Both the position numbers and the translations under genes were made by a program. The notes beneath the pieces are model-generated. The model was not told the DNA's origin and searched no databases. It saw only the letters and a list, made by a program, of their open reading frames with translations. A stretch of DNA of 64,000 bases. It comes from Escherichia coli (GTDB lineage: Bacteria > Pseudomonadota > Gammaproteobacteria > Enterobacterales > Enterobacteriaceae). Shown one piece after another: positions 27,080-62,031 of this stretch; position 1 is the first letter of the stretch; every line of letters starts with the position of its first letter. Location: the NCBI RefSeq assembly GCF_024700885.2, contig NZ_CP117016.1; one strand, written 5' to 3'.

Positions 27080-27154
27080 GGGTCAGTCGTATAAAGGTCA
27101 TTACGGAAGGCTGTTAACCTTCTTATCGTGGTTCGAGTCCACGCTGTCCCGCCA
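27080..27154 (+). tRNA. tRNA-like gene, anticodon GTT (Asn-like)
   Basis: Hand-folded cloverleaf: acceptor GGGTCAG/CTGTCCC (one mismatch), anticodon stem GAAGG/CCTTC with loop CTGTTAA, T-arm CGTGG-TTCGAGT-CCACG, discriminator G and CCA. Confidence 0.5.
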
Positions 27155-27159
27155 AATAT

Positions 27160-27235
27160 GCTGGTTTAGCTCCAATGGTAGAGCAGTCGCCTTGTAAACG
27201 AATGGGTAGCGGTTCAAGTCCGTTAACCAGCACCA
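27160..27235 (+). tRNA. tRNA-like gene, anticodon TGT (Thr-like)
   Basis: Acceptor GCTGGTT/AACCAGC, canonical D-arm GCTC-CAATGGTA-GAGC, T-arm AGCGG-TTCAAGT-CCGTT, CCA end; anticodon stem has two mismatches. Confidence 0.5.
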
Positions 27236-27477: not shown

Positions 27478-27801
27478 ATGAAGATGCCAGAAAAACATGA
27501 CCTGTTAGCCGCCATTCTCGCGGCAAAGGAACAAGGCATCGGGGCAATCCTTGCGTTTGCAATGGCGTACCTTCGCGGCAGATATAATGGCGGTGCGTTT
27601 ACAAAAACAGTAATCGACGCAACGATGTGCGCCATTATCGCCTGGTTCATTCGTGACCTTCTCGACTTCGCCGGACTAAGTAGCAACCTCGCTTATATAA
27701 CGAGCGTGTTCATCGGCTATATCGGTACTGACTCGATTGGTTCGCTTATCAAACGCTTCGCTGCTAAAAAAGCCGGAGTAGAAGATGGTGGAAATCAATA
27801 A
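27478..27801 (+). CDS. S: Holin S (class I, dual-start)
   Basis: [34 protein letters not shown]..., lambda S. Confidence 0.95.
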
Positions 27802-28261
27802 TCAACGTAAGGCGTTCCTCGATATGCTGGCGTGGTCAGAGGGGACTGATAACGGACGTCAGAAAACCAGAAATCATGGTTATGACGTCATTGTAGGCGG
27901 AGAGCTATTCACTGATTACTCCGATCACCCTCGCAAACTTGTCACGCTAAACCCCAAACTCAAATCAACAGCCGCCGGACGCTACCAGCTTCTTTCCCGT
28001 TGGTGGGATGCCTATCGTAAGCAGCTTGGCCTGAAAGACTTCTCTCCGAAAAGCCAGGACGCTGTGGCACTGCAACAGATTAAAGAGCGTGGCGCTTTAC
28101 CGATGATTGATCGCGGTGATATCCGTCAGGCAATCGACCGTTGCAGCAATATCTGGGCTTCACTGCCGGGGGCTGGTTATGGTCAGTTCGAGCATAAGGC
28201 TGACAGCCTGATTGCAAAATTCAAAGAAGCTGGCGGAACGGTCAGAGAGATTGAGGTATGA
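27785..28261 (+). CDS. R: Endolysin R (lytic transglycosylase)
   Basis: [42 protein letters not shown]..., lambda R. Confidence 0.95.
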
Positions 28262-28725
28262 GCAGAGTAACCGCGATTATCTCCGCTCTGGTTATCTGCA
28301 TCATCGCCTGTCTGTCATGGGCGGTTAATCATTACCGTGATAACGCCATCGCCTACAAAGAACAGCGAGATAAAAAAGTCAGTGAGCTGAAGCAGGCGAC
28401 CGCCACCATTACTGACATGCAGCAGCGCCAGCGTGCTGCTGATGCACTCGATGCTAAATACACGAAGGAGTTAGCTGATGCGAAAGCTGAAAATGATGCT
28501 CTTCGGCGCAAGCTTGATAATGGTGGTCGGGTGTTCGTCAAAGGAAAATGCCCTATGCCATCCTCAGCCGAAACCTCCAGCGCCTCCGGCATGGGCAATG
28601 ATGCCACCGTCGAACTCTCTCCAGTTGCTGGACGAAACGTTCTCGGTATCCGGGACGGAATCATCAGCGACCAAACAGCACTGAGAACGCTTCAGGAATA
28701 CATCAGGACGCAATGCCTTCGATGA
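28258..28725 (+). CDS. Rz: Spanin inner-membrane subunit Rz
   Basis: N-terminal TM segment plus coiled coil; lambda Rz-like. Confidence 0.9.
28478..28684 (+). CDS. Rz1: Spanin outer-membrane lipoprotein Rz1 (embedded in Rz, +1 frame)
   Basis: [21 protein letters not shown]... lipobox followed by a proline-rich segment, nested in Rz. Confidence 0.7.
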
Positions 28726-28899
28726 TAGCGATAATTTTACTCATCATCCTTCACATCTGGCTCTGTAGACAGGGTGGTGATCACTTCTGGAGTGAATCCA
28801 GATTAAACATCTCATTGCTGATGCTTGATATTGAGCATCTTGCGCGCGGTAAGGGGCTGCGTTGAGATAAGAGCCAGTTCATTACAAATACCAGGATTT

Positions 28900-28928
28900 A
28901 GCCTCGCATTCGCGGGGTTTTTTATTCC
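28900..28928 (+). terminator. Putative intrinsic terminator after lysis genes
   Basis: Hairpin CCTCGCATTCGCGGGG followed by TTTTTTATT. Confidence 0.4.
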
Positions 28929-28947
28929 CAACTCCATAGGTAATTTT

Positions 28948-29427
28948 ATGACCCAGCATATTGGCGTAAAACTGATTAACGCCTTTCCGATGACGAGACA
29001 GGCATATAACGATTTTCGTGGCTGGCAGCTTCCTGCCGGAGAAAACGGCGAGGACGAAGGCTATCTGGTTGAATATCTGGATGGCGGAAAACCTAACACC
29101 GATCGCTTTGATGGCTACGTTAGCTGGAGTCCAAAAGAAGTATTCGAAAAGGCTTATCGTCCGGTATCAGGACTAAGTTTCGGCCTTGCCATGGAAGCGT
29201 TAAAACAGGGCAAAAGTTTGCAGCGGGCAGGATGGAATGGGAAAGACCAGTTTGTTTATCTCGTGAAAGGGGAAAAATTAGCGTCTGCGTTGGGTTATGG
29301 CTTTGGCGAATATGTTGGCGAGCCAACTTTCAATGACACGCTTGTATTGAAAAACTCACAGAACCGCCTTGCTACATGGGTTCCATCCATTGGCGACCTG
29401 ATGGCTGAAGACTGGCAAATCATTTAA
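28948..29427 (+). CDS. Hypothetical late-region protein (DUF2829-like?)
   Basis: Track ORF 28825..29427; start moved to ATG at 28948 (MTQHIGVKL...) downstream of the terminator hairpin; C-terminal WNGK...YLV...TW.PS..DLMAEDW motif. Confidence 0.5.
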   Translation: MTQHIGVKLINAFPMTRQAYNDFRGWQLPAGENGEDEGYLVEYLDGGKPNTDRFDGYVSWSPKEVFEKAYRPVSGLSFGLAMEALKQGKSLQRAGWNGKDQFVYLVKGEKLASALGYGFGEYVGEPTFNDTLVLKNSQNRLATWVPSIGDLMAEDWQII

Positions 29428-29660
29428 CCATGTAGGCATTACAAAGCCTATCTACGGGTGGGCTTGATAATGAAACCGGAATTTATTCTGGGCAACCAGT
29501 TACGGCAGTACAGCGAAGCAACCCAAGCCAGAAAGTGGGGAAATAACACTGGCAGCCACTGAAAGATGAACCTCCTGCCTTATGGCAAAAAAGATTCTTT
29601 GTGGTGGCGGACTGATGGAAAGACATCCTAATCAAGCAACCACTCCACAGGGTCATAATT

Positions 29661-30032
29661 ATGAACGACCAGCAAATCGAAAAAGAAATCGTTGAGAAAG
29701 GCAAAACGGCACCGCGCGTTACGCCAGACCATATCGAAGGAATTATTGCTCAGGAGGCATATTTCACAGCAGAGGATGGTGCCTTTGGCAAAGCCATAAA
29801 AGATAAACATACTGGCGGAGAGGTAAACTACCAGCCGCACGAATCACTTTCTCTGCTGACGTTCTGCGTCCTGGTGCTGCGCAACGGCTTCACCGTCACC
29901 GGAGAGAGTGCCTGTGCAAGTCCGGAAAATTTTGATGCAGAAATTGGTCGGAAGATTGCCCGGCAGAATGCTGTAAACAAAATCTGGATGCTCGAAGGTT
30001 ACTTGCTGAAGCAGAAGCTAAGCGAACAGTAG
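29661..30032 (+). CDS. Hypothetical late-region protein (123 aa)
   Basis: ORF with RBS; no confidently recognised domain. Confidence 0.5.
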   Translation: MNDQQIEKEIVEKGKTAPRVTPDHIEGIIAQEAYFTAEDGAFGKAIKDKHTGGEVNYQPHESLSLLTFCVLVLRNGFTVTGESACASPENFDAEIGRKIARQNAVNKIWMLEGYLLKQKLSEQ

Positions 30033-30135
30033 TTATTACAAAAGCCATTCCCTACAGAGTGGCTTTGATAATGGCTTATACCCTACACGGGATAACTTAA
30101 CTGATATCCCTTTTAACGGATAAACGGAGCCAACA

Positions 30136-30378
30136 ATGGCAGAGATTATTCCCATGACTGAAGAACAGAAATTCCAGTTAGAGATTTACAAACTGGTCAT
30201 GAACCAGAACGCAGCCGCAGAAGAAGCATTTCAATTCATTGGCACTGACGAACTGAAGCTTGAGCTATTCAAAATTCACTTCCAGTCAGGCGGCGCTAAT
30301 TCGGATATCACGACCCGCACTATCGAAGCGGTGCGTAAATCGAAGGAAGCGTTAGACCTGTTCACTACCGGAGCATGA
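30136..30378 (+). CDS. Hypothetical small acidic protein (80 aa)
   Basis: ORF immediately upstream of the small terminase. Confidence 0.5.
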   Translation: MAEIIPMTEEQKFQLEIYKLVMNQNAAAEEAFQFIGTDELKLELFKIHFQSGGANSDITTRTIEAVRKSKEALDLFTTGA

Positions 30379-30407
30379 TGCTCAACCTGAAATAACAAAT
30401 AAGTGAG

Positions 30408-30902
30408 ATGAATATGGCAGCACCAAAGGGCAACCGATTTTGGGAGGCCCGCAGTAGTCATGGGCGAAATCCTAAATTCGAATCGCCCGAGGCGCTGTGG
30501 GCTGCTTGTTGTGAATACTTCGAGTGGGCTGATGATAACCCGCTATGGGAGGGTAAGGTATTTTCATATCAGGGAGAAATAATTAAGGCTAACGTTCCTA
30601 AGATGCGAGCCATGACTATTTCAGGATTGTGTACCTTCCTTGATATCACCAGGCAAACATGGGGAACCTTCCGGTCAATGGAAGGTTTTTCTGACGTCAC
30701 ATCACGAGCGGAAGACATCATCTACGACCAGAAATTCTCTGGCGCAGCCGCTGACCTTCTCAACGCTAACATCATCGCCCGTGATTTGGGCCTCAAAGAG
30801 CAGTCGCAAGTTGAAGACGTGACACCTGATAAGGGAGATCGCGATAAGCGGCGCTCTCGTATCAAGGAGCTATTCAACCGTGGAACTGGACGCGATTCTT
30901 GA
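30408..30902 (+). CDS. Terminase small subunit (P22 gp3-like)
   Basis: [38 protein letters not shown]..., P22 gp3 family; pac site expected within the gene. Confidence 0.85.
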
Positions 30903-46642: not shown

Positions 46643-46860
46643 AGTTTATTGAGGTTGATGAGATTGGCTATGAGAATGCACTTGGTAGAGGTAAATCTTT
46701 AGTTAACGTTAATGGCATTGAGTCGATAAGGAGCGGTGAATTTACGGAGATCAGAATGATGTCAGGTGGAATCATTCCTTGCCGTGATTCAGTAGAGTCA
46801 ATCAAAGCAAGAATGAGTGGTCAGTGGCTTTATAACTACAGTGACTTACAAAAACAGTGA
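46639..46860 (+). CDS. Hypothetical protein (73 aa) between arc and ant
   Basis: ORF with overlapping start/stop to arc and to the ant upstream frame. Confidence 0.45.
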
Positions 46861-46922
46861 AGCCCCAACTGCGGGAACAGTCAGGGCTTCGGGTGTCAGT
46901 AAATCCGTGGAGAAAAACCAAC

Positions 46923-60889: not shown

Positions 60890-61040
60890 ATTTACACGCT
60901 AGTATCGGCTTAACCACTAAACACTCTAGCCTCTGCACCTGGGTCAACTGATACGGTGCTTTGGCCGTGACAATGCTCGTAAAGATTGCCACCAGGGCGA
61001 AGAAAGAAATGACTTCGCCTCCCGTATCTGGAAAGGTGTA
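60890..61040 (+). ncRNA. Molybdenum-cofactor (Moco) riboswitch in the moaA leader (approximate bounds)
   Basis: Structured leader upstream of moaA; placement from established knowledge of the moa operon, not folded here. Confidence 0.45.
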
Positions 61041-61041
61041 C

Positions 61042-62031
61042 ATGGCTTCACAACTGACTGATGCATTTGCGCGTAAGTTTTACTACTTGCGCCTGTCGAT
61101 TACCGATGTGTGTAACTTTCGTTGCACCTACTGCCTGCCGGATGGCTACAAACCGAGCGGCGTCACCAATAAAGGCTTTCTTACCGTCGATGAAATTCGC
61201 CGGGTTACGCGCGCCTTCGCCAGTCTGGGCACCGAAAAAGTCCGTCTGACGGGCGGTGAGCCATCTTTACGCCGCGACTTTACCGATATCATCGCCGCTG
61301 TGCGGGAAAACGACGCTATCCGCCAGATTGCGGTCACCACCAATGGTTACCGTCTGGAACGCGATGTGGCGAACTGGCGCGATGCGGGACTTACTGGCAT
61401 CAACGTCAGCGTTGATAGCCTTGACGCTCGCCAGTTTCATGCCATTACCGGGCAGGATAAATTCAACCAGGTCATGGCAGGGATCGATGCTGCATTTGAG
61501 GCCGGTTTTGAGAAGGTCAAAGTCAATACCGTGCTGATGCGTGATGTTAATCATCATCAGCTCGACACCTTTCTGAACTGGATCCAGCATCGCCCTATCC
61601 AGCTGCGTTTCATCGAATTGATGGAAACGGGTGAGGGCAGCGAGCTCTTCCGTAAGCATCACATCTCTGGTCAGGTTCTGCGTGACGAGCTACTGCGTCG
61701 CGGCTGGATCCACCAATTACGTCAACGCAGCGACGGTCCCGCGCAAGTCTTTTGTCATCCGGATTACGCCGGAGAGATTGGCCTTATCATGCCGTATGAA
61801 AAAGACTTCTGCGCCACTTGCAACCGCCTGCGCGTTTCCTCCATTGGTAAACTCCATCTCTGCCTGTTTGGTGAAGGCGGCGTTAACCTGCGCGATCTGC
61901 TGGAAGACGATACCCAGCAACAGGCGCTGGAAGCGCGTATTTCAGCGGCGCTGCGGGAGAAGAAACAGACCCATTTCCTGCATCAAAACAACACCGGTAT
62001 TACGCAAAACTTATCGTACATTGGCGGCTAA
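61042..62031 (+). CDS. moaA: GTP 3',8-cyclase (radical SAM)
   Basis: Start at [33 protein letters not shown] (CxxxCxxC radical SAM motif). Confidence 0.9.

Follow-up and report, generated by a model that had tools for sequence, protein, structure and literature searches.

Two stem-loops between late genes of a P22-like prophage: probably working RNA structures that also act as recombination joints

Are two hairpin-forming repeats that follow consecutive late genes of an Escherichia coli prophage RNA elements, borders of exchangeable genes, or both? They lie in a stretch of 64 kb, here called the window, which is a prophage of the P22-like type. A preliminary description of this DNA had placed each repeat just after a stop codon and proposed a role in processing, in attenuation or as the boundary of a mobile cassette. 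The repeats fall in a variable region that is a hot spot for accessory genes, ordered as lysis genes (Rz and gene 65), cargo, and then the DUF2560 and terminase genes (Table 1). The gene 65 homologue overlaps the end of Rz and is the final backbone gene ahead of the variable region. On the right the region is bordered by the DUF2560 gene, also a backbone gene, and the small terminase subunit gene is the first of the packaging module.

Table 1. Features of the variable region and its borders, with positions in the window.
Feature	Position	Strand	Evidence
Small ORF, Sf6 gene 65 homologue	28713..28865	+	ORF list; phrog_11822 3.9e-38; Sf6 and epsilon34 annotations
Left-flank half copy CATTACAAA	28881..28889	+	Sf6 comparison; repeat D12
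Intrinsic terminator AGCCTCGCATTCGCGGGG plus T-run	28900..28927	+	terminator scan; called at 28900-28919
Slot-1 cargo, 159-aa protein with Tad2-like (Thoeris anti-defense 2-like) domain	28948..29427	+	Pfam PF11195 6.4e-22; phrog_872 1.9e-69
Hairpin copy 1 (type B), with outer stem	29436..29473	+	48.6 bits; fold; alignment
Short leader AAACCGGAATTTATTCTGGGCAACCAG	29474..29499	+	right-context clustering; sequence variants
Conserved 128-nt non-coding block	29500..29627	+	82 loci, 49 distinct sequences
Slot-2 cargo, 123-aa protein, Gp49 / Sf6 gene 66 family	29661..30032	+	Pfam PF13876 8.4e-35
Hairpin copy 2 (type A), with outer stem	30033..30074	+	59.7 bits; fold
DUF2560-gene leader, conserved	30075..30135	+	fold
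DUF2560 gene (hkbM / P22 ORF80)	30136..30378	+	Pfam PF10834 1.1e-43; HK620, Sf6 and P22 annotations
Small terminase subunit gene	30408..30902	+	ORF list; IME10 and E212 matches annotated terminase small subunit

Both repeats are real, and the two sequences first quoted for them match the window letter for letter. Copy 1 (ATTACAAAGCCTATCTACGGGTGGGCTTGATAATG) had been placed at about 29450-29484 and truly lies about 12 nt to the left, at 29438-29472. The hairpins do stand downstream of stop codons: copy 1 starts 11 nt past the TAA (29425-29427) of the upstream ORF, and copy 2 (30035-30074 without the complete outer stem) starts 2 nt past the TAG (30030-30032) of the 123-aa ORF. Copy 1 has the inner stem AAGCCUAUC/GGUGGGCUU with the loop UACG and the flanks CATTACAAA and GATAATG, and GTAG precedes it at 29432-29435. 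Copy 2 has the inner stem AAAGCCAUUC/GAGUGGCUUU, the loop CCUACA and the outer stem AGUUAUUA/UAAUGGCU; an identical element is present in Sf6, Huey, mEpX1, phiKp_30 and a Stx2a phage. Both hairpins share one architecture, in which an inner stem of 9-10 bp is separated by a 2x2 internal loop (CA/GA) from an outer stem of 5-8 bp. When the two copies were aligned pairwise, they had the left block GTAG..ATTACAAA and the right block GTGG..TTGATAATG in common and differed by 4 nt in loop length.

Folding of the + strand RNA gave -18.3 kcal/mol for copy 1 (z = -3.0) and -20.6 kcal/mol for copy 2 (z = -4.8). The - strand folds were weaker (-12.3 and -16.0 kcal/mol, respectively; z about -1.7). Taken singly, the half-motifs were no more frequent than expected by chance; the combined motif had 0 matches in shuffles. 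With a covariance model built from relatives, the next-best site in the 64 kb after copy 2 (59.7 bits) and copy 1 (48.6 bits) reached 13 bits. The shuffles and the model scores rule out a chance repeat. A third copy in the window is partial and consists of the left flank alone (28881-28889).

Copies 1 and 2 are paralogous members of one family of stem-loops of 38-42 nt, found in P22-like and other lambdoid phages, with one or two copies per locus in about 250 related loci. P22, Sf6, HK620 and Stx phages all carry the element. In all of them it stood after the lysis genes and before the terminase region, and in about 125 loci its one or two copies fell in the roughly 3 kb that precede the DUF2560 gene. 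The loci were gathered via anchors in the leader of that gene or in the non-coding block, so that sampling is biased to this neighbourhood. In orientation, 181 of the hairpins at these 125 or so loci lie on the late-operon strand, and one symmetric variant matches both strands. HK620 has just two hairpin sites genome-wide, and a search with filters off found no extra copies elsewhere in HK620 or in the 64-kb window; the only distant relative found was at locus L066. The type-B form occurs in 297 of 5426 complete E. coli genomes (∼5%), at 1-3 places per genome, all of them in prophages.

No Rfam 15 family matched either hairpin even at E ≤ 10 in a permissive scan of 28500-30600, which returned only two chance-level hits away from the hairpins; over the whole window Rfam found only sar, two tRNAs and a Moco riboswitch. 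The hairpins are unannotated in the HK620, P22 and epsilon34 records and in the stretch of the Sf6 record examined, and the epsilon34 genome paper has no discussion of the lysis-terminase interval. The prophage sRNAs AgvB and Pas were rejected as identities since they are encoded elsewhere, near Q/holin or structural genes. A link to insertion sequences or transposons through SEN22 was likewise dismissed, the annotated transposon there disrupting gene 65 rather than a hairpin. The experimental deletions in Sf6 (Dover 2016) all fall within the nin region and have no bearing on the hairpins.

Across the family the flanks (C)ATTACAAA and GATAATG are almost invariant, and the stems occur in at least four sequence classes with pairing kept in each. 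Among 25 distinct variants, 96% of cells were paired and 8 of the 16 pairs had two-sided changes, counts that take related sequences as independent; controls with partners shifted by 1-3 columns were only 32-64% paired. RNAalifold independently gave the same stems. Further stem classes are GAGACC/GGTCTC, GAGGCC/GGTCTC and GAGGCC/GGCCTC, the class D stem is AAGCGTC/GGGCGCTT, and a distant form has GGATGCA/TGCATCC. At the top of the outer stem, an A-U pair is replaced by G-C (ATTG...CAAT) via G·U intermediates. Where types A and B seem to covary, at columns 11-12 with 31-32, part of the signal may instead mean that a single A-T pair was lost.

The stems hold 52 G·U and 10 A·C pairs, and 43 of 75 type B loops are C(UACG)G, with C(UGCG)G and C(AACG)G as variants. 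The G·U excess and the C(UACG)G tetraloop indicate a structure of RNA, or at least of the + strand; when single-stranded, DNA of that strand could likewise make use of G·T pairs and hairpins. Frequent recombination (homogenisation), rather than functional selection, might explain why the flanks are nearly invariant.

The same hairpins were found in related phages, where they border variable cargo or no cargo at all. There are at least 19 unrelated left contexts, in which similarity is lost about 6 nt before ATTAC, and at least 6 unrelated right contexts, which switch directly after GATAATG. The hairpin flanks are the points at which phages gain or lose homology to one another, and some BLAST matches cover the hairpin only (mEp213, Stx2 phages and a lambda-type prophage of E2348/69). 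Hybrid hairpins with crossovers inside them occur at three loci (L086, L087 and L105), and at a fourth (L074) half a hairpin is fused to cargo. The boundary part of the mobile-cassette proposal is thus well supported; a dedicated mechanism of mobilisation is improbable. Random illegitimate joins, if only those that spare a conserved element survive, would place junctions at its edges just as well.

These junctions delimit two cargo slots whose contents vary between phages. In the window, the slot-1 module opens with the intrinsic terminator, and the same terminator element is annotated as Rho-independent in epsilon34. Sf6 has no Tad2-like gene at the corresponding place. At the 28881 joint the window reads ...GAGCCAGTTCATTACAAA/TACCAGG... 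and Sf6 reads ...GAGCCAGTTCATTACAAA/GCCTATC..., so that the joint continues as a type-B hairpin in Sf6 or as terminator-led cargo in the window. The window therefore has one extra module relative to Sf6, the terminator plus the Tad2-like gene, between the CATTACAAA joints at 28881 and 29437.

The elements do flank the 123-aa gene, as was noted at the outset, but their slot also contains the highly conserved 128-nt non-coding block. The leader AAACCGGAATTTATTCTGGGCAACCAG, which joins copy 1 to this block, is one among several alternative right-hand contexts. The block has a diversity of 0.00-0.08 and sharp mosaic boundaries. It has no Rfam match, and no covariation supports a conserved RNA structure in it because the block is too invariant; small ORFs across it are not conserved, and its A-run ranges from A6 to A8. 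Slot 2 holds different genes in other phages or is empty, and over about 100 loci the slot-1 and slot-2 cargos reassort in many combinations. Gp49, Rha and KilA-N proteins are among the cargos. To the right of copy 2, the DUF2560 leader has a second small hairpin by folding (GGGAUA...UAUCCC, 30089-30111), and Stx2 phages without the DUF2560 gene still keep this leader after the hairpin.

The hairpin is always intergenic, 2-65 nt after the stops of cargo ORFs, and follows stop codons of at least 15 ORF families unrelated to one another. After Gp49 (34 loci), hkbL (22) and Rha (5) the spacing is precisely 2 nt. In 7 of the 19 left contexts ATTAC is preceded, at a distance of 2 nt, by GTAG, which mostly represents the stop codon of the cargo but does not do so in copy 1 of the window; the remaining contexts have no GTAG.

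On balance we favour the view that the element is a non-terminating stem-loop of late mRNA between genes, with conserved flanks that serve as short-homology crossover points. The hairpin is probably a working RNA structure, because compensating mutations preserve its base-pairing, and a recombination joint as well. In the Q-antiterminated late transcript it would fold as a non-terminator stem-loop, most likely blocking 3′ exonucleases or marking a place of processing, in the manner of REPs or of T7-type RNase III sites. Either role would insulate each cargo cistron. Since selection would hold the element nearly identical, its flanks and stems would offer 8-40 bp of identity, which phage or host recombinases could use to insert, delete or exchange cargo modules. 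Judged from the sequence, a part in RNA processing or stabilisation is plausible, given the conserved pairing with + strand bias and the stable tetraloops.

Several other explanations have to be weighed. The element may be a passive linker or 'boundary sequence' that homologous recombination uses and that has no function of its own, with the hairpin a relic, for example of an old terminator without its U-tract. We regard this as a credible but rather unlikely alternative. It accounts for the coincidence of the element with mosaic junctions, and terminators of the same region are junctions too; the Sf6 record annotates other 'bsq' boundary sequences, and the concept is established in lambdoid phages according to the passage of PMC3029335 that cites Clark et al. 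2001. However, a relic would not hold its pairing over several independent two-sided changes and would not favour G·U pairs over A·C pairs by 5:1. The prevalence of stable UNCG-type loops also speaks against it, as does the diversity of the element and the neighbouring non-coding DNA (0.00-0.07, against up to 0.43 in the coding sequence between). It is improbable, too, that the hairpin is a transcription terminator or attenuator set after each cargo gene as in morons, which classically end with terminators. A stable hairpin does stand right after stop codons, and attenuation was among the roles first proposed. But the stem is followed by GAUAAUG(G/A), GAUAAUGA or GAUAAUGG and no U-tract, and the terminator scan called the true terminator of the window and neither hairpin. 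More than 40 loci have a bona fide T-run terminator immediately ahead of the hairpin, so a second terminator would be redundant there, and the essential packaging and head genes are downstream of the hairpins in the same operon.

Could the folded strand act as DNA? A site for dedicated recombination or transposition, recognised as folded single-stranded DNA as in attC, REP/RAYT or IS200/IS605-like systems, would make the cargo true cassettes. An outer stem, an unpaired spacer, an inner stem and a variable centre resemble the attC layout, and the element lies 3′ of the cassette ORFs in an ordered array. Several contexts have GTAG ahead of the palindrome, as REPs do, and the flanks hold TTAC and TTGAT, which we take to be the target motifs of IS608 and ISDra2. 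The junctions are precise on both sides, and the strand bias suits single-strand recognition. Nevertheless we hold such a site to be highly improbable: neither the annotated HK620 genome nor the annotated segments inspected in further phages have an integron integrase, RAYT or TnpA gene alongside the element, attC core motifs are missing, and there are just 1-3 copies per E. coli genome, all prophage-borne. Hybrid hairpins with crossovers within the stems or loop fit homologous rather than site-specific exchange. Very unlikely, in the same way, is a lambdoid cassette system whose recombination sites are the hairpins, comparable to integrons or to PeSL minicircles, in which resolution would act on the folded + strand, or on two adjacent hairpins, so that units of a gene plus its 3′ hairpin are excised and inserted. 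Such a system, if true, would be a dedicated ordered array by which temperate phages gain accessory genes, and its cargo would include candidate anti-defence genes such as that for the Tad2-like protein. Finally, the outer stem might hide the AUG of GAUAAUG and thereby regulate a downstream small ORF or re-initiation, an idea to which we give hardly any credence. This AUG is nearly invariant and paired within the outer stem, and in the many families whose cargo stop is only 2 nt away from the hairpin, the stem would be melted by the ribosome that terminates there. Against this idea, the ORFs from this AUG are unconserved (30 aa in the window, 3 codons in AAACCGTGA variants, 9 aa after copy 2) and have no Shine-Dalgarno sequence at a usable distance, and the genuine genes lie 60-190 nt farther downstream and have ribosome-binding sites of their own.

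Ever since the modular theory, opinions have differed on the origin of mosaic junctions in tailed phages, with recombination at short conserved linkers set against random illegitimate joins followed by selection. This locus is a compact and very common test case. Its joints can be placed to the exact nucleotide, some of them are hybrids and the cargo reassorts freely, so that marked crosses and stem mutants could separate the two models. With this element, the late operon of model phages also gains a structured motif that had not been catalogued. The lysis-terminase interval emerges as a system of slots with candidate anti-defence cargo (the Tad2-like gene), and the hairpin borders should be useful for mining new accessory genes.

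Among known systems, attC sites are imperfect inverted repeats 3′ of promoterless, co-oriented cassette ORFs, with conserved ends, a variable centre and activity as a single strand. In contrast to these, the hairpins have no RYYYAAC/GTTRRRY cores (their ends are (C)ATTACAAA and GATAATG) and no extrahelical bases, and they serve at most two slots. No IntI or attI was found in the annotated neighbourhoods of Sf6, HK620, epsilon34, mEpX1, mEp213, Stx2a_WGPS6 and P22, where all genes are for lysis, cargo or terminase; HK620 has a single integrase, the Int of the prophage, located at attP. REPs (repetitive extragenic palindromic sequences) are imperfect palindromes after stop codons within operons, co-transcribed and sometimes preceded by GTAG, and REP-type hairpins were reportedly found by Newbury and co-workers in 1987 to shield upstream mRNA from 3′ exonucleases. 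The present hairpins are unrelated to them in sequence, only GTAGGC being alike when compared by eye with the E. coli REP consensus. Unlike REPs and BIMEs, they number 2 per phage and 1-3 per genome, are all co-oriented, never form inverted pairs and have no RAYT gene. T7 RNase III sites are intercistronic hairpins of the polycistronic phage transcript with ∼16-20 paired positions and a small internal loop, and cleavage of this type leaves a protective 3′ hairpin on the upstream message. Here the likeness is of shape only (5-8 bp, 2x2 loop, 9-10 bp), with no sequence relationship, and for RNase III the helix is on the short side.

Most similar among known elements are the 'boundary sequences' of lambdoid phages and the PeSLs (promoter-early stem-loops) of T4-type phages. 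The Susskind-Botstein linker model of modular exchange underlies the idea of boundary sequences. PMC3029335, citing the HK620 work of Clark et al. 2001, describes them as short stretches at gene or module borders that are conserved amid otherwise unrelated segments and that were proposed to be foci of homologous recombination. The hairpins are likewise conserved between unrelated DNA at borders of genes or modules, but they add pairing kept by compensatory change and a strand bias, which boundary sequences neither require nor predict. The HK620 record and the examined part of the Sf6 record have no feature at the hairpin sites, the sole bsq in that part (bsq7) lying inside Rz. PeSLs are small conserved regulatory motifs with a stem-loop that flank non-essential ORFs of hyperplastic regions (PMC2839356, PMC4122927), and recombination between their copies leads to insertion, deletion and replacement (Arbiol et al. 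2010; Comeau et al. 2014; PMC2839356, PMC4122927). Neighbouring copies of PeSLs can also recombine into minicircles. A strong sigma-70-type promoter and a terminating stem-loop are features of PeSLs, whereas the hairpins have no U-tract, and a promoter scan found no sigma-70-type match at either of them; GATAAT could be a -10 element, with no -35 element at 16-18 nt. The hairpins also differ in sitting in the antiterminated late operon of temperate lambdoid phages. Like PeSLs, they flank variable ORFs, and indels or replacements map to the motif itself, as seen in about 100 loci and in the hybrid hairpins.

The prophage in the window is P22-like (Lederbergvirus), and each of its two late-region hairpins is a stem-loop that is strand-specific and under structural constraint, has invariant flanks and borders reassorting cargo modules. 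The hairpin region is 95–98% identical, piecewise, to Sf6, HK620, Huey, IME10, Kapi1 and many Salmonella P22-like phages. It has the arrangement of Sf6 with one addition, a 557-nt module made up of the terminator and the Tad2-like gene; two CATTACAAA joints, at 28881 and 29437, enclose this module. An Rfam scan of the window found the P22 sar antisense RNA at 46856–46922, a marker of the P22 immI region, and two tRNA genes directly upstream of the holin gene (27080–27232). A Moco riboswitch at 60910–61054, towards the window's right end, probably belongs to the host chromosome flanking the prophage.

Order of features around the two hairpins in the window
Feature	Position	Strand
Holin	27478–27801	+
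Endolysin	27785–28261	+
Rz	28258–28725	+
Small ORF, Sf6 gene 65 equivalent	28713–28865	+
Intrinsic terminator	28900–28919 plus T-run	+
159-aa protein with Tad2-like domain (PF11195)	28948–29427	+
Hairpin copy 1	29436–29473	+
Non-coding stretch, about 190 nt	about 29474–29660	+
123-aa protein, Gp49/Sf6 gene 66 family (PF13876)	29661–30032	+
Hairpin copy 2	30033–30074	+
61-nt leader	30075–30135	+
DUF2560 gene (hkbM, P22 ORF80)	30136–30378	+
Small terminase	30408–30902	+

Both repeat sequences quoted in the preliminary description are present. Copy 2 was found at 30035–30074, and copy 1, at 29438–29472, lies about 12 nt to the left of the place first assigned to it. The similarity and the folding proposed for them hold. 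The copies align over a left segment, GTAG..ATTACAAA, and a right one, GTGG..TTGATAATG, and the + strand RNA folds at −18.3 kcal/mol (z = −3.0) for copy 1 and −20.6 kcal/mol (z = −4.8) for copy 2. In each predicted fold, a 2x2 internal loop separates a 9–10 bp inner stem from a 5–8 bp outer stem. Both hairpins were retained when folded in longer context, and their − strands fold clearly worse. Singly, the half-motifs occur at chance frequency; the combined motif had 0 occurrences in shuffles. With a covariance model built from relatives, exactly two sites were found in the 64 kb (59.7 and 48.6 bits), the next best scoring 13 bits. No Rfam family matches the hairpin, and a promoter scan at the hairpins led us to reject a sigma-70-type promoter. 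The leader that separates copy 2 from the start of DUF2560 contains a second, small hairpin, GGGAUA...UAUCCC, at 30089–30111, and a look-alike, GATATCCCCGCAAGCGGATAAT, occurs in mEp213. The DUF2560 leader is retained 3′ of the hairpin in Stx2 phages without the DUF2560 gene.

To follow the family, we collected 120 viral contigs by an exact anchor in the DUF2560 leader and a further 120 by one placed where the non-coding block ends, and read several annotated phages. Within this sampling, which both anchors tie to the hairpin neighbourhood, hairpins number one or two, rarely three, in each locus whose upstream sequence is long enough, and all lie no more than about 3 kb upstream of DUF2560. On the late-operon sense strand there are 181; one symmetric variant fits both strands. 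The whole HK620 genome contains only its two copies. The left flank, (C)ATTACAAA, and the right flank, GATAATG(G/A), hardly vary, and the stems fall into four types: A, AAAGCCAYUC/GAGUGGCUUU (window copy 2); B, AAGCCYAUC/GGUGGGCUU (window copy 1); C, GAGRCCAUUC/GAGUGGYCUC (P22, epsilon34, HK620); and D, AAGCGUC/GGGCGCUU. A distant form, GGAUGCA/UGCAUCC, occurs in one contig 3′ of an HNH-like gene in the Q-holin interval. This relative (locus L066, 6299–6336; CCATTACAGGATGCATTTATGAGTGCATCCATTAATGG, 27 bits) has the same flanks with an entirely different stem, and lies 18 nt past a 173-aa HNH-like ORF, outside the usual hot spot. In the phage databases, the hosts were Escherichia, Shigella, Salmonella, Klebsiella and Raoultella.

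Related phages bear out the earlier proposal that the hairpins flank variable cargo. The layout is gene 65, slot 1, hairpin B, slot 2, hairpin A or C, and DUF2560, where the slots are exchangeable cargo-gene places. Slot 1 holds the terminator and Tad2-like gene, KilA-N with hkbL, Rha, a GIY-YIG nuclease or one of several unknown genes; slot 2 holds the non-coding block, either alone or together with a small gene, which is Gp49 or any of at least six others. These cargos occur in many combinations. Both slots are empty in 19 loci (gene 65, terminator, hairpin A), slot 1 is empty in the 10 loci with the Sf6 layout, and type B is joined straight to the DUF2560 leader, a slot 2 deletion, in 12.

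Sequence changes abruptly at the hairpin edges. At least 19 unrelated sequences lie to the left of ATTACAAA, similarity starting only about 6 nt before the motif. Immediately past GATAATG the context changes to the DUF2560 leader, one of several AAACCG... leader versions, or unrelated sequences (L042, L122, mEp213, L169). The hairpin follows the stop codon in at least 15 unrelated ORF families, with a gap of exactly 2 nt for Gp49 (34 loci), hkbL (22), Rha (5) and four rarer families. In BLAST searches with copy 1 and the non-coding stretch, breakpoints recur at hairpin edges, and mEp213 and Stx2 phages give matches confined to the 36-nt hairpin. In Stx2 phages it closes a KilA-N/hkbL module and in mEp213 it lies directly 3′ of the gene 65 region, each followed by unrelated DNA; in an E. 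coli search, it likewise closes the Rha module of an E2348/69 lambda-type prophage. Crossovers also fall within the hairpins. In L086 the left arm is of type C and the loop and right arm are of type A; in L105 only the left arm is type B, the rest being type A; L087 is a type B hairpin whose right flank is of type A; and in L074 and L079 cargo is fused to half a type C hairpin.

Two insertions were seen nearby. SEN22 carries an IS-like element with a disrupted transposase (positions 1274–2421 of locus L129), which breaks the gene 65 homologue and not the hairpin; its backbone is otherwise empty (hairpin B, non-coding block, hairpin C, DUF2560). In P22, an insertion of about 650 nt (positions 1570–2220 of locus L134) cuts the DUF2560 leader about 12 nt past the type C hairpin. 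As read from the sequence, it appears to carry an opposite-strand gene with its own terminator-like hairpin, AAAAAAGCCGCTTACTTAGCGGCTT; the P22 record annotates no reverse-strand CDS there.

Nucleotide diversity was profiled in 26 distinct loci with the order hairpin B, non-coding block, Gp49, hairpin A, DUF2560. It was about 0.06–0.07 in hairpin B, 0.00–0.08 in the non-coding block, 0.2–0.43 in the middle of Gp49, 0.00–0.02 across the last 60 nt of Gp49, hairpin A and the leader, and rose to about 0.2 in DUF2560. Conservation in the region is therefore highest at the non-coding joints. The block itself (29500–29627, 128–129 nt, TTACGGCAG...GGAAAGACATC) is present in 82 loci, is more conserved than the adjoining genes and is delimited at either end by a sharp mosaic boundary. 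Small ORFs through it are not conserved because an A-run varies from A6 to A8, and it showed neither covariation nor an Rfam match. The Gp49-family gene has almost invariant ends around a middle third with diversity up to 0.43, which suggests allele replacement inside the gene (intragenic mosaicism). The C-terminal half of the 159-aa slot 1 protein is a Tad2-like (Thoeris anti-defense 2-like) domain (6.4e-22), and the only matches to the protein's N-terminal half are function-unknown phage families. This gene, absent from Sf6 at the equivalent site, is a candidate anti-defence gene. Huey homologues of the Tad2-like and Gp49-family genes (positions 1748–2248 and 2483–2863 of locus L001) are annotated "anti-CRISPR protein", a name without support in Pfam or PHROGs.

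That the hairpin is a passive linker is unlikely. Several observations indicate selection on its pairing. Among 25 distinct variants, 96% of cells are standard pairs, 8 of 16 pairs have two-sided changes, and all five pairing measures exceeded every one of 500 shuffles; these statistics treat related sequences as independent and are not phylogeny-aware. Since the sequences are related, the counts of pairing changes overstate independent events, and part of the covariation between types A and B may instead reflect the loss of a single A-U pair. When the partner was slid by 1–3 columns, pairing fell to 32–64%, and unguided RNAalifold gave the same stems. The second collection contains an A-U, G·U, G-C series at inner pair 4 (GAGACC/GGTCTC, GAGGCC/GGTCTC, GAGGCC/GGCCTC). 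Types A and B have A-U as the top outer-stem pair; most type C copies have G-C there (ATTG...CAAT), and G·U intermediates occur. The 52 G·U pairs, compared with 10 A·C, mark the + strand as the one that folds. A stable C(UACG)G tetraloop forms the type B loop in 43 of 75 loci, with variants including C(UGCG)G and C(AACG)G; its prevalence favours RNA over DNA. A dedicated hairpin-recombination system is extremely improbable.

A terminator or attenuator is very unlikely. The stem is followed by GAUAAUG, the hairpins are not called by the scan that detects the genuine terminator at 28900, and we rejected an intrinsic terminator. Over 40 loci have a true terminator, T-run included, directly ahead of the hairpin, e.g. 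...GCGGGGCTTTTTATTGCC|ATTACAAAAGCC.... We give hardly any credence to translational control; the AUG of the right flank opens no conserved ORF and was rejected as a start. The reading that we favour, as probable, combines an RNA hairpin with a recombination joint. Its junction role, taken alone, is held with high confidence; the specific RNA role, which draws on analogy, is tentative. In the late transcript, the element would fold as a non-terminating RNA hairpin, which would most likely be a 3′ exonuclease block or processing site, as with REP or T7-type RNase III sites, and would uncouple the cargo cistrons from the lysis and packaging messages. Because the hairpin is nearly identical in every phage, it would also offer short identities through which homologous recombination could swap, insert or delete modules.

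Literature searches found no description of this family, and an earlier mention is possible in the original HK620 and Sf6 genome papers, which the searched literature did not include. The hairpin resembles REPs and attC sites only in shape and position. It works like the T4-type PeSLs (PMC2839356, PMC4122927) but is missing two of their defining features, the promoter and the terminator. The records of HK620, Sf6, P22 and epsilon34 do not annotate it as a boundary sequence. It falls within the operational definition of such sequences in lambdoid phages (Clark et al. 2001, cited in PMC3029335), and its conserved pairing exceeds that concept.
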